Positions 3,635 to 10,806 of a DNA stretch of 56,444 nt are shown one piece after another (the first letter of the stretch is position 1; each line of letters starts with the position of its first letter). Position numbers and translations under genes: made by a program. The stretch comes from Chloroflexota bacterium (GTDB lineage: Bacteria > Desulfobacterota > Binatia > UBA9968). The stretch covers positions 1 through 56,444 of the forward strand of contig JBLMXG010000117.1 in assembly GCA_050257635.1 (NCBI GenBank). Direction: 5' to 3'. The notes under the pieces are model-generated. The model saw nothing but the letters and a program-made list of their open reading frames with translations, did not search any database and had not been told where the DNA came from.

Positions 3635-4114
3635 ATGGCGGTCACGATTTATCTATCACTAATTTTTTTGGCCCTCTATCTGGTCGGCTTGGCGGTTCAC
3701 CGCTGGCTTTTTTTACGCGATAAGCGGCGCATGGCCGAAGAGAGCCGGGAGGGCAGCCGGGTGATTGCCAAAGTCGGCGATCTCGCGCCCGGCACAGTGA
3801 AAAAATTTTGGCTCATCTGCCAGCGATACCGATTGGATGCCTTTTTGATCAACGACCAGGGAAACTTCCACGCTTACATCAACCGCTGTCGGCACATGCC
3901 GACGCCGCTGGATTTCGTCCGGGACGAATTTGTCAGCGATGACGGCCGGTTCTTGAGATGCTATACCCATGGCGCGCTTTACGAGTTCGCCACCGGCCTG
4001 TGCGTGGACGGGCCGTGCAAGGGAGAATTCCTTTATCGCCTGCCGGTTCGGGTGGACCGAGAGGACGTGCTGGTCGGCTGCCCCGATGGCGATTTGAGAC
4101 AGCTTGCAGATTGA
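3635..4114 (+). CDS. Rieske [2Fe-2S] protein with N-terminal membrane helix
   Basis: CRH...CYTH Rieske ligands, GLCVDGPC; hydrophobic N-terminus. Confidence 0.85.
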   Translation: MAVTIYLSLIFLALYLVGLAVHRWLFLRDKRRMAEESREGSRVIAKVGDLAPGTVKKFWLICQRYRLDAFLINDQGNFHAYINRCRHMPTPLDFVRDEFVSDDGRFLRCYTHGALYEFATGLCVDGPCKGEFLYRLPVRVDREDVLVGCPDGDLRQLAD

Positions 4115-4125
4115 GGAGCGGTGTC

Positions 4126-4503
4126 ATGAGCGAAGCGAAGAAAAGGTCGCCGCGCAAATGGGTCGCCACGCTGGGCGAGATCGAGCATGGTAAAAGCAAG
4201 AAATTTACCCTACGCCGCGGCCAGCGCGATCTGGAGGCTTTGCTGGTCAATTTCCAGGGACAGCACTTCGCTTATGTCAATCGCTGCCCGCACACCGGCA
4301 TCACCCTCGATTGGGTGAACAATCAGTTTTTCAGCTCTGATAACCGCTACCTCATGTGCGCGACCCATGGCGCGGTGTTCGAGCCGCCGACCGGAGAATG
4401 TGTCTGGGGGCCTTGTTTCGGTCTGTCGCTACAGAGCGTGCCGGTGGAAATCGAAGAGGGACGGATCTACGCGCGGTTGCCGGGGGCGCCGGACGAAGAG
4501 TGA
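4126..4503 (+). CDS. Rieske [2Fe-2S] ferredoxin
   Basis: CPH...CATH ligands, GECVWGPC; GAGGAG RBS before ATG 4126. Confidence 0.88.
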   Translation: MSEAKKRSPRKWVATLGEIEHGKSKKFTLRRGQRDLEALLVNFQGQHFAYVNRCPHTGITLDWVNNQFFSSDNRYLMCATHGAVFEPPTGECVWGPCFGLSLQSVPVEIEEGRIYARLPGAPDEE

Positions 4504-7858: not shown

Positions 7859-7934
7859 TGGAGGCGGCGAGCGGATTCGAACCGCTGCATCGAGGTTTTG
7901 CAGACCTCTCCCTTAACCACTTGGGTACGCCGCC
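7859..7934 (-). tRNA. tRNA-Cys (GCA)
   Basis: Reverse complement GGCGGCG...CTGCAAA...TTCGAAT...CGCCGCC-T-CCA folds into a 76-nt cloverleaf with GCA anticodon, U73 discriminator and encoded CCA. Confidence 0.97.
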
Positions 7935-7988
7935 TTGATTGCCTAGCTAACATGAAGTTTTCACGACTTGCAACAACGGTGCAAATTA

Positions 7989-8017
7989 TTGACAACCCAG
8001 AGCGAAACACGTAATTA
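7989..8017 (+). promoter_or_regulatory. Putative sigma-70 promoter of the ferredoxin-fusion gene
   Basis: TTGACA-17 nt-TAATTA, followed by an AGGAG RBS. Confidence 0.55.
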
Positions 8018-8043
8018 AAAAAGTCCGAAGAGGAGCTTTTCTA

Positions 8044-9384
8044 ATGGCAACGATGATCACCAGTGATTGCATTAATTGCGGGGCATGCGAGCCAGAATGC
8101 CCGAACAACGCAATTAGCCAGGGTGATCCGGTTTATGTGATCGATCCGAAGCTGTGCACGGAATGCGTTGGCTTTCACGATTACGAAGCCTGTGCCGCAG
8201 TCTGCCCGGTCGATGTATGCGTGACCGATCCGAACAATATCGAATCCGAGGAGGTTTTGATCGCGCGAGCTCGGTCGCTGCACCCGGAGACTGACTTCGG
8301 CGATAATTTTCAATCTCGTTTTCGAAAAGGAGCGGCTAGCAGCCCGGCTCCGGCAGCTCCAGCCACTGCGCCGCAAGAAAAAGCTGAGTCCCCTGCCGAG
8401 CCCGCGTCAAAACCCGCAGCACCGGTAGCTCAGGCTGCAGCTCCCAAGCCACCACCAGCGCCGCCGGCGCCGGCGGCAGCGAAACCGGGACCGGTCAAAA
8501 AGGAACTGAAGCCACAGAAAACCTTTCCGGGCGAGCTGCCGATCAGTTTCGACGACGCTTTGGATAAATACGTCAGCGGCACGCCCGCGCTGAAAGGTGT
8601 GGTTCGATGGGCGATGATCCTTTTGCAGCCGGCCATTGGGGCTTTGCCGCACGCTACCAAGAAGCGGCTCGAGACAGCGTTGCAGACCCCATTGTTTACT
8701 GCCGCGGGGAGCACGGCGGTCAACATCGCGCATAATGCCGTCCTTTATCCTCTTGCCTGCATGGCGATTGCAGCGGTGGTTCATGGCCCGGCGATTATTT
8801 TCACCCAGGATATCAATAAATATATTCTCATCGGGCTGGTGCTCGCCGCGGCGGAAGGCATCGTTCGTCTAAAGGATGGAATTTTTGGACTAAAGCCAAC
8901 CGAAGAAATGAAATTTCTTCCGTCTTTTTATGGCGCGCCACTGGGAATAATCGCCGATTCGCTGTTGGCAAAATATACCGACTTGGTCCGAGATATTCCG
9001 ATCCCGGTGGACGGTTTTTATTCAAAAGGGTTTGTCGACAAGCTCGAACGCGAACGGCGCTACGGCAATGTCTATACAGTGGAAGACCGCGGCGGCGCTT
9101 ATCTGGTCCGAATGGAATTCCCGCGATGGACGCCGGATATCGGCATTCCGAACCGCCGGCAATTGCCGGATGAAATGCCGGATTACGATTACGAGCTCGC
9201 TTTACCGGACGGGCAGCTGGTTATAAAAGGCAAATGCACGGATGAGAGGGTCCGGAAAATCTCTTCCAGCGTAGGCGCGTTTCCGCCTGAATTTGTCACG
9301 GTTATTCCCTTACGCGAGAAAAGCGTCGGGTTTTCACATCGCTTTGAGAATAAGGTTCTCGAGGTTCTGGTCGCGAAAGGGTGA
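8044..9384 (+). CDS. YfhL-like 2x[4Fe-4S] ferredoxin fused to a Pro/Ala linker, a membrane segment and an Hsp20-like C-terminal domain
   Basis: CINCGACEPECP and CTECVG...CAAVCP; APAAP-rich linker; hydrophobic helices; C-terminus VEDRGGAYLVRMEFP...LVIKGK...F...IPL...FENKVLEVLVAK resembles the alpha-crystallin pattern. Confidence 0.75.
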   Translation: MATMITSDCINCGACEPECPNNAISQGDPVYVIDPKLCTECVGFHDYEACAAVCPVDVCVTDPNNIESEEVLIARARSLHPETDFGDNFQSRFRKGAASSPAPAAPATAPQEKAESPAEPASKPAAPVAQAAAPKPPPAPPAPAAAKPGPVKKELKPQKTFPGELPISFDDALDKYVSGTPALKGVVRWAMILLQPAIGALPHATKKRLETALQTPLFTAAGSTAVNIAHNAVLYPLACMAIAAVVHGPAIIFTQDINKYILIGLVLAAAEGIVRLKDGIFGLKPTEEMKFLPSFYGAPLGIIADSLLAKYTDLVRDIPIPVDGFYSKGFVDKLERERRYGNVYTVEDRGGAYLVRMEFPRWTPDIGIPNRRQLPDEMPDYDYELALPDGQLVIKGKCTDERVRKISSSVGAFPPEFVTVIPLREKSVGFSHRFENKVLEVLVAKG

Positions 9385-9398
9385 TTCTTCCACGGAGA

Positions 9399-9941
9399 AT
9401 GGCGATCGCTCACGACACGAAACCAAGATCGAATCTCACCGAAGAGCCACAGGCGAATGCTATCACCTGTGGCTCTTTCGCTTTCGAGGATGGCTTGCGA
9501 TTTCGGCCGATAACCGTCGCCGACTTAGATGACATCATGGTTATCGAAAGGAACTCGTTCCCCGTGCCCTGGAGTGTCAACTTTTTTCGCCAAGAACTGC
9601 AGGTTGCCTGTGCTCGTTCGGTTCTTGCTGAGTCCGATGGCAAGATCATCGGGTACGTTCTCTTCTGGTTATTGCCGGGGGCTATCGATGTCCACAACAT
9701 CGCGGTGCACGTCGGCTATCGGCGCCGCGGTATTGCACGCATGCTTTTGAGCCGCGTGGTGGGGGAAGCGAGGCGGCGCGCCATATATCGAGTTTTACTT
9801 GAAGTACGCCGTTCTAACTTCCCGGCTCAAAAGCTTTATGAAGCGCTCGGATTTAAGACAACCGGAATTCGCAAGGGTTATTATTCGGATAACGGCGAAG
9901 ATGCCCTAGCGATGACACTTGAGTTAAACAGCGTGAGTTGA
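9399..9941 (+). CDS. rimI: Ribosomal protein S18 alanine N-acetyltransferase
   Basis: IERNSFPVPWS, NIAV...RRRGIA, LEVRRSN..AQKLY..LGF...GIRKGYY...EDA; start uncertain. Confidence 0.88.
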   Translation: MAIAHDTKPRSNLTEEPQANAITCGSFAFEDGLRFRPITVADLDDIMVIERNSFPVPWSVNFFRQELQVACARSVLAESDGKIIGYVLFWLLPGAIDVHNIAVHVGYRRRGIARMLLSRVVGEARRRAIYRVLLEVRRSNFPAQKLYEALGFKTTGIRKGYYSDNGEDALAMTLELNSVS

Positions 9942-10323: not shown

Positions 10324-10806
10324 ATGTTTAAAGTCGGCGAGAAGGTAGTTTATCCGGCCCACGGGGTCGGCGAGATTGAAGCGATACGATCCCATGTCAT
10401 CTCTGGCACCGAGAAAAAATTTTATATGCTGCGAATTCTCGAGACCGACATGAAGATCATGATTCCGATCGACAACGTTGAATCCGTGGGATTGCGAAAA
10501 ATTATCGACCGCGCCATGGTGACGAAAGTCTACAAAGTGCTGCGCCAAAAGAAAGTCGAAACGGACCAACAGACATGGAACCGTCGCTATCGGGAATATA
10601 CCGAGAAGATTAAGACCGGTTCCATCCTGGAAATCGCAAAAGTTTTACGGGATCTTTTTGTCCTCAAGGGCGACAAGGAGCTTTCCTTCGGTGAAAGGAA
10701 AATGCTCGACACGGCGCGGAACCTTTTGGTCAAGGAACTTTCCATCGCGCGCTCCCATTCCGAAGAGAAGATCATGGAGGAACTGCGCCATATCTTTACC
10801 CATTGA
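10324..10806 (+). CDS. carD: CarD/CdnL family RNA polymerase-binding transcription factor
   Basis: FKVGEKVVYPAHGVG, QTWNRRYRE, LSFGERKMLD; classic carD-ispD synteny. Confidence 0.93.
   Translation: MFKVGEKVVYPAHGVGEIEAIRSHVISGTEKKFYMLRILETDMKIMIPIDNVESVGLRKIIDRAMVTKVYKVLRQKKVETDQQTWNRRYREYTEKIKTGSILEIAKVLRDLFVLKGDKELSFGERKMLDTARNLLVKELSIARSHSEEKIMEELRHIFTH

Follow-up and report, generated by a model that had tools for sequence, protein, structure and literature searches.

A 446-residue protein (P0001), encoded at 8044..9384 (+, stop included) of the window (the whole 56,444-nucleotide stretch of DNA analysed here), joins a YfhL-type ferredoxin, a Pro/Ala arm, a predicted membrane hairpin and a C-terminal domain with a predicted alpha-crystallin (HSP20) fold. 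In most genomes of the class Binatia the gene is present, in single copy and with its domains in this order; relatives swap the ferredoxin for other kinds, and the protein is lost together with a second, unlinked ferredoxin fusion. At roughly even odds (probability about 0.5), we read it as an electron-transfer adaptor that is anchored in the membrane and whose ferredoxin swings on its arm.

The open frame, which has no internal stop, is a real gene and no assembly artefact, because hundreds of independent homologues exist and four studies show neither a joint nor an indel. Residues 160–446 matched 898 proteins; among the best 120 of these, the named ones belong to Candidatus Binatia and most are 440–466 residues long and carry a Fer4 domain. 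Sequencing contigs from four runs in four studies contain zero indels or joints inside the gene, with the ferredoxin-to-middle and middle-to-next-gene junctions bridged by pieces at 7900–8541 and 8534–9600, respectively. No single piece covers the entire gene, which is the point in favour of the possibility, raised with the original prediction, that assembly or read-through joined separate genes; with the identical fusion in hundreds of independent proteins and also in single-contig genomes, we give this reading almost no weight. A weak search for longer forms of the protein returned 0 among 7,995 candidates, and Atlas matches for residues 155–446, all under 0.9, serve as a lead only. The phage search gave zero matches to the protein and the plasmid search matched the ferredoxin part only; no RNA sequencing run containing the stretch is listed, and promoter and terminator scans at the gene stayed at chance level.

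Residues 1–95 (8044..8328, +) form a YfhL/Alvin-type 2[4Fe-4S] ferredoxin. NCBIfam NF033683 (YfhL) matches residues 1–77 with 104.3 bits against a cut-off of 86, and Pfam recognised only Fer4 families in the 446-residue protein, with no PF00011 match. Its likeness to the P. aeruginosa Fdx (2fgo) and the A. vinosum ferredoxin (3eun) comprises 56% identity, the eight cluster ligands (Cys 9, 12, 15, 19, 38, 41, 50 and 54, beside an extra Cys59), the eight-residue stretch of Cys41-x8-Cys50 and the C-terminal extension helix after the last ligand (residues 69–79 in the full-length model). An insertion that separates two Cys ligands in the second cluster is a feature of the Alvin type (PMC2984482). 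Members described so far stand alone and have at most 100 residues, as the available part of that paper has it; by this definition the domain qualifies and the fusion protein does not, the ferredoxin here being the head of a predicted membrane protein in a genome that has a second fused YfhL copy as well. According to the same portion, YfhL-type ferredoxins have potentials under -450 mV and a single known role, in transfer from 2-oxoglutarate oxidoreductase to benzoyl-CoA reductase; the P. aeruginosa representative is essential, and partners are there known solely for anaerobic aromatic degradation (PMC2984482).

The ferredoxin part carries a net charge of -10. In the full-length model (pTM 0.58) it was built without clusters at a pLDDT of about 50, which is uninformative on docking. 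It is followed by a Pro/Ala tether (residues 96–157; 8329..8514, +) of low pLDDT that contains 18 Pro and 21 Ala in 62 residues and varies in length and sequence among homologues. The N-terminal YfhL-type ferredoxin of ~90 residues and the Pro/Ala linker of ~60 residues expected from the sequence alone are thus recovered as residues 1–95 and the 62-residue arm.

The middle region (residues 158–318; 8515..8997, +) combines a conserved FPGELP motif, amphipathic helices and a predicted membrane hairpin, with high-confidence helices modelled at 186–198, 203–213, 220–247, 257–275 and 297–308. Averaged over 25 diverse rows, hydropathy reaches its maximum of 2.03 across residues 228–246 and is about 1.3 across 252–274. 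One transmembrane helix is predicted at about residues 226–247 (8719..8784, +), within modelled helix 220–247; the other, of moderate hydrophobicity only, is predicted from the model and the alignment at about residues 257–275 (8812..8868, +) and ends in conserved E271/R275. P196, G199, F218, N227, Y235, P236, Y296 and G297 are conserved as well. An N-in/C-in hairpin is predicted because Lys/Arg residues flank the helix pair (typically 3–4 per flank in the same 25 rows) and are scarce in the connecting loop (0–2); both the ferredoxin and the HSP20-fold domain would then be cytoplasmic. Hydropathy and the model turn the hydrophobic-helix region of the original prediction into a predicted two-helix hairpin. 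No known family was found for the middle region, for which Atlas gave no usable match and full-model structure searches were swamped by the C-terminal domain.

Residues 319–446 (8998..9381, +) are predicted to adopt a divergent HSP20/alpha-crystallin fold. AlphaFold2 with 40 aligned domains produced a helix and a seven-strand sandwich (pLDDT 85.4, pTM 0.79), with an insertion after beta-3, the second strand of the model; in this monomer model the beta-5/7 loop, the site of beta-6 and of its strand-exchange dimer in small heat-shock proteins, holds a helix followed by FPP. Small heat-shock proteins lead the Foldseek matches (best E 4.6e-5, TM about 0.52) and fill all top 12 places in the VIA structural search (Z 8.0–8.9), led by 4rzk_B (Z 8.9, rmsd 2.4, 78 aligned). 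CS domains follow at Z 7.0–7.9 (Sgt1 7.9, Ncb5or 7.5) and a Get3d-type domain at 6.3; these Z values are middling, though the rows agree, and the best CS value (7.9) lies within or near the tie range of the best small heat-shock protein (8.9). Profile comparison by hhalign with 22 Binatia HSP20s gave 93% (E 2.7e-7, 87 columns, a 16-residue insertion) and a beta-5/7 loop of sHSP-like length, and a distant subgroup of the domain family also reached 93% against the HSP20 profile. Model, Foldseek, VIA and hhalign together bear out the alpha-crystallin-like C-terminus that had been proposed, and the sandwich is there in the model. The size of ~105 residues proposed for it falls short: the domain spans about 128, because a conserved helix and the RRYG motif stand before the first strand.

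The domain is predicted to share the HSP20 fold, yet we do not class it as a small heat-shock protein, because the Pfam match and the IXI motif are missing and the beta-7 arginine is mostly replaced. Pfam HSP20 (PF00011) matched 0 of 40 domain members at E up to 10, and a PDB sequence search with the domain returned no match below E 0.45. The IXI tail and the beta-7 arginine are both named as sHSP hallmarks in the available part of PMC4823740; the C-terminal IXI/V motif occurs in 0/40 domain tails vs 21/22 control HSP20s, and at position 419, the beta-7 arginine site in the register of the profile alignment, the 40 members have Thr (34), Lys (5) or Arg (1). Some members of a second distant group have Arg at or near this position. 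The domain has its own motifs, RRYG and MPDY, the former lying in the family signature K-x-E-R-x-R-R-Y-G (residues 333–341; 9040..9066, +), whose RYG is invariant across the distant family; no conserved Cys or His cluster-binding set was found in it. It therefore resembles small heat-shock proteins (PF00011; Sulfolobus Hsp20.1 4rzk and Hsp14.1 4yl9, Xanthomonas HspA 3gt6) in sandwich and profile homology, and differs from them in the missing hallmarks, the insertion after beta-3, the helix and FPP at the beta-6 site, its private motifs and its fusion to ferredoxins. The host genome separately encodes ordinary HSP20s (five intact matches and one broken by a stop).

Two described proteins come close in design. 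In Ncb5or (CYB5R4; cytochrome b5 - CS - b5 reductase), an HSP20-like CS domain sits inside an electron-transfer protein and connects two redox domains (PMC9706631, available part); it aligns with our domain at Z 7.5 (6mv2_A, rmsd 2.1, 77 aligned). Ncb5or, however, is an animal flavohaemoprotein without iron-sulfur clusters, and at about 10% identity the likeness is an analogy only. Get3d (All4481; 3igf_A) carries a bacterial C-terminal alpha-crystallin domain without the usual oligomer features, and the accessible portion of PMC10248533 shows no dimers for that domain; there it is fused to an ATPase handling tail-anchored proteins, with neither a ferredoxin nor a membrane hairpin.

Within the class, the C-terminal domain matched in 227/301 genomes, nearly always once; the domain profile found it in 118 of the 151 genomes at least 90% complete, always exactly once. 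A single-protein query of about 243 genomes from other classes of the phylum did not find it. The ferredoxin is absent and the domain kept in family f96 and in several genomes of f6, and other copies lack the membrane part or both. Among nine genomes with a ferredoxin-less copy that were tested, seven hold a YfhL elsewhere; in G362, both partner domains are kept and no YfhL was found. The four-part anatomy originally described thus holds in its order and proves more modular than was supposed. One locus (L045; G289:C61) has only the HSP20-fold part, as a 114-residue frame before a fabH pair, possibly a truncated copy. Family f6 we take to be Binataceae.

A divergent tRNA-Cys gene (7859..7934, -) lies directly upstream of the cysteine-rich fusion gene. 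Downstream, a GNAT acetyltransferase (9381..9941, +), the usual neighbour, overlaps the fusion stop by 4 nt, and CarD (10324..10806, +) is conserved further on. Most loci have the GNAT or CarD gene downstream, often after two FabH-like genes; a tandem FabH-like pair follows the fusion in many families (L003, L006, L038, L040, L041, L043–L046, L049, L050, L052, L057). In three genomes that lack the fusion gene, the genes of the fabH-fabH-GNAT run still follow one another unbroken, and this reads as clean loss. At the loci inspected, neither neighbours pointing to a redox pathway nor a chaperone gene beside the fusion were found. The names rimI (for the GNAT gene), coaD, rsmD, polA and dinB are labels that we assume. 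Elsewhere in the window, two adjacent small frames with CxH...CxxH motifs (3635–4503, +) resemble Rieske proteins.

Beyond Binatia, a domain profile search matched 151 proteins among 1.84 billion representatives. Going by record titles, these relatives come from Deltaproteobacteria-type MAGs, Myxococcota, Bdellovibrionota, Chitinivibrionia and Latescibacterota. In a 74-row tree (matches covering at least 85 profile positions, three rows dropped; 17 close Binatia matches kept from those above 115 bits; 9 loci and 8 HSP20s added) the family forms one clade apart from the 8 HSP20s (100/99), with an unresolved base. A ferredoxin or fragment occurs in 23/36 non-Binatia representatives of the tree, as counted by hand from motif labels and Pfam-checked for most. 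The types are an FdxA-like dicluster, a mono-cluster Fer4_13 and a four-cluster polyferredoxin, so that with YfhL the family is fused to four ferredoxin types; the number of independent fusions is not readable from the domain tree. The polyferredoxin is C-terminal to the domain, often with Fer4_13 in front, and ferredoxins thus stand on either side of it. The same membrane middle occurs with other ferredoxins, of FdxA type (P0313, P0354) or mono-cluster (P0343).

Among the 36 distant representatives, 13 have no ferredoxin, some of them probably truncated; those of Bdellovibrionota and of the Chitinivibrionia type genuinely stand alone, and no adjacent ferredoxin gene was seen. In metagenomes, the domain occurs with the polyferredoxin in 24/80 loci, and of 27 others read, the in-frame ones encode the polyferredoxin alone. 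Metagenomes commonly encode this C-terminal part of the three-part fusions in free form, as a stand-alone four-cluster polyferredoxin of ~157 residues (L193–L245). No operon emerged from the loci read outside Binatia, 18 in genomes and, by eye, 19 of the 80 in metagenomes; the neighbours are an aminotransferase and TatD in one group and polA and dinB in another.

The genome encodes a second YfhL, 86% identical to the first and likewise fused through a Pro/Ala arm, here to a CxxC...CPxC zinc ribbon followed by a long helix and a basic-aromatic tail. Its gene is split across contigs (G000:C143:14057-14665, +; G000:C250:5097-5294, -), and related loci (L141–L151, L154–L156) show a K/R-rich tail ending in F-G, which may be akin to a MinD-type membrane-targeting helix. 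This fusion is present in 115/151 class genomes and unlinked to the first. Over these 151 genomes the HSP20-fold and zinc-ribbon parts are both present in 112 and both absent in 30, with nine discordant (HSP20-fold only in 6; zinc ribbon only in 3, one of them a weak partial match), a table that overstates co-loss, since kin are not independent. For that reason the case rests, in place of a Fisher value, on six families (f2, f4, f5, f6, f100 and f101) in which some genomes have lost both and other members keep both; double losses occur also in f97, f98 and f103. The adjacent fabH-like gene, IspG and PF06050, used as controls, do not follow the pattern. In 18 domain-carrying genomes outside Binatia the zinc-ribbon part was not found (one weak 37-residue match), so the coupling may be specific to Binatia.

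YfhL itself is kept in 19 genomes without the domain, as a stand-alone protein where inspected. A third, stand-alone YfhL of 110–111 residues (L158, L160–L167) was not found in the window's own genome; it follows an ApbC/Mrp-like gene in L161 and L166 and in most loci precedes inositol-3-phosphate synthase, PIP synthase and coaBC. The window's genome also encodes a 220-residue fusion of an FdxA-like ferredoxin with an HbpS-like haem-binding domain (PF03928; L008:592-1254, -; G000:C92), downstream of a 438-residue Fe-S protein.

Eight candidate partners were compared with the presence and loss of the fusion, and none followed it. PF06050 (2-hydroxyacyl-CoA dehydratase/benzoyl-CoA reductase) looked promising in a five-genome screen and proved present in only 16/151, including the double-negative genomes G253, G307 and G391. 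IspG occurs in 115/151, with 0/16 in f99 and 1/18 in f5, families that keep the fusion gene, and the fabH-like pair (65/151) shows an unrelated pattern and is not lost with the fusion. In the five-genome screen, nitrogenase-like/DPOR and HscB each scored 0/5 and 2-oxoacid:ferredoxin oxidoreductase 5/5; aldehyde:ferredoxin oxidoreductase was present in the own genome and in double-negative G260, and the sole RnfD match was weak and in a double-negative. As side observations, the own genome has two HGD-D (PF06050) domains in one 848-codon frame (G000:C124:11323-13620, -; L248), PF06050 is present in 8/10 other f1 genomes, and IspG falls class-wide into two score classes, about 1e-150 and 1e-100.

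Because the HSP20-fold domain is fused to other ferredoxin kinds in other bacteria, it is likely a dedicated protein-docking platform and not a general stress chaperone or holdase. The likely binding face would be the conserved basic RRYG patch together with the FP loop, and the acidic ferredoxin, swinging on its arm, would move between a membrane-held donor and acceptor, possibly serving a pathway shared with the unlinked fusion of ferredoxin, zinc ribbon and helix. The co-loss with that second fusion, the missing oligomer features of holdases, the YfhL kept elsewhere in seven of the nine ferredoxin-less genomes and the non-chaperone precedents of CS and Get3d domains support such an adaptor; the ferredoxin-less representatives (13/36), the f96 and f6 copies, G362, the lack of a redox neighbour and the eight failed partners count against it. 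The scaffold with a swinging ferredoxin arm suggested in the original prediction fits, whereas its redox-linked chaperone or oligomeric scaffold is weakened by the IXI and beta-7 counts and by the ordinary HSP20s of the genome. On the latter line, a membrane-bound general holdase gated by the ferredoxin's redox state would draw on nearest folds that are true small heat-shock proteins, on the loop length and on the arginines of the second distant group; with IXI missing in 40/40 tails, the beta-7 arginine replaced in 39/40, the insertion after beta-3, HSP20s already available to the host and no adjoining chaperone gene in any locus inspected, we consider it very unlikely.

The repeated fusion to unrelated ferredoxin types would also fit the ferredoxin as a client. 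The domain would then be a private chaperone that holds the apo or oxygen-damaged form until cluster reinsertion, in cis where fused and in trans where split, and the Binatia stand-alone YfhL behind the ApbC/Mrp-like cluster carrier agrees with this. Such a chaperone could, however, do without the 62-residue arm and without anchoring in the membrane; stand-alone YfhL persists in the 19 genomes without the domain, the co-loss with the zinc ribbon is left unexplained and the domain offers no Cys or His set for a cluster, which makes this account unlikely. That the domain is constant at the locus while ferredoxin and hairpin vary, and that stand-alone forms exist, could alternatively mean that the HSP20-fold domain performs a membrane-associated function of its own, with the ferredoxin acting as a redox or oxygen sensor or with neighbouring genes loosely joined in the fusion. 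Upstream of the fusion, L044 and L057 have a coaD-like gene, and the vicinity of coaD is a known position of fdx genes (PMC2984482, available part), an adjacency that could lead to fusion. Chance adjacency cannot account for four ferredoxin types on either side of the domain, nor does this account explain the co-loss with a second ferredoxin fusion, and we judge it quite unlikely.

An extension of the electron-transfer adaptor is more tentative: an undescribed HSP20-fold branch would act as a ferredoxin-docking domain across several phyla, and Binatia would add a two-protein membrane wiring system, in which two YfhL ferredoxins of very low potential, each on a Pro/Ala arm and anchored in one case by the helix hairpin beside the domain and in the other by the zinc ribbon, long helix and basic-aromatic tail, feed one shared membrane process. 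We found no published description of the fusion or the domain in the titles and abstract openings of freely accessible papers; the available main text of the Binatota survey (10.1101/2020.09.14.296780) has 'ferredoxin' twice and 'heat shock' never. The domain family is one that Pfam, NCBIfam and PDB sequence searches miss. Its repeated fusion to ferredoxins makes it a handle whose pull-down should name the acceptor, and the co-lost second fusion delimits a small system open to tests, in a soil lineage that is abundant and uncultured. If the proposal is true, this would be a bacterial alpha-crystallin fold serving electron transfer instead of stress protection.
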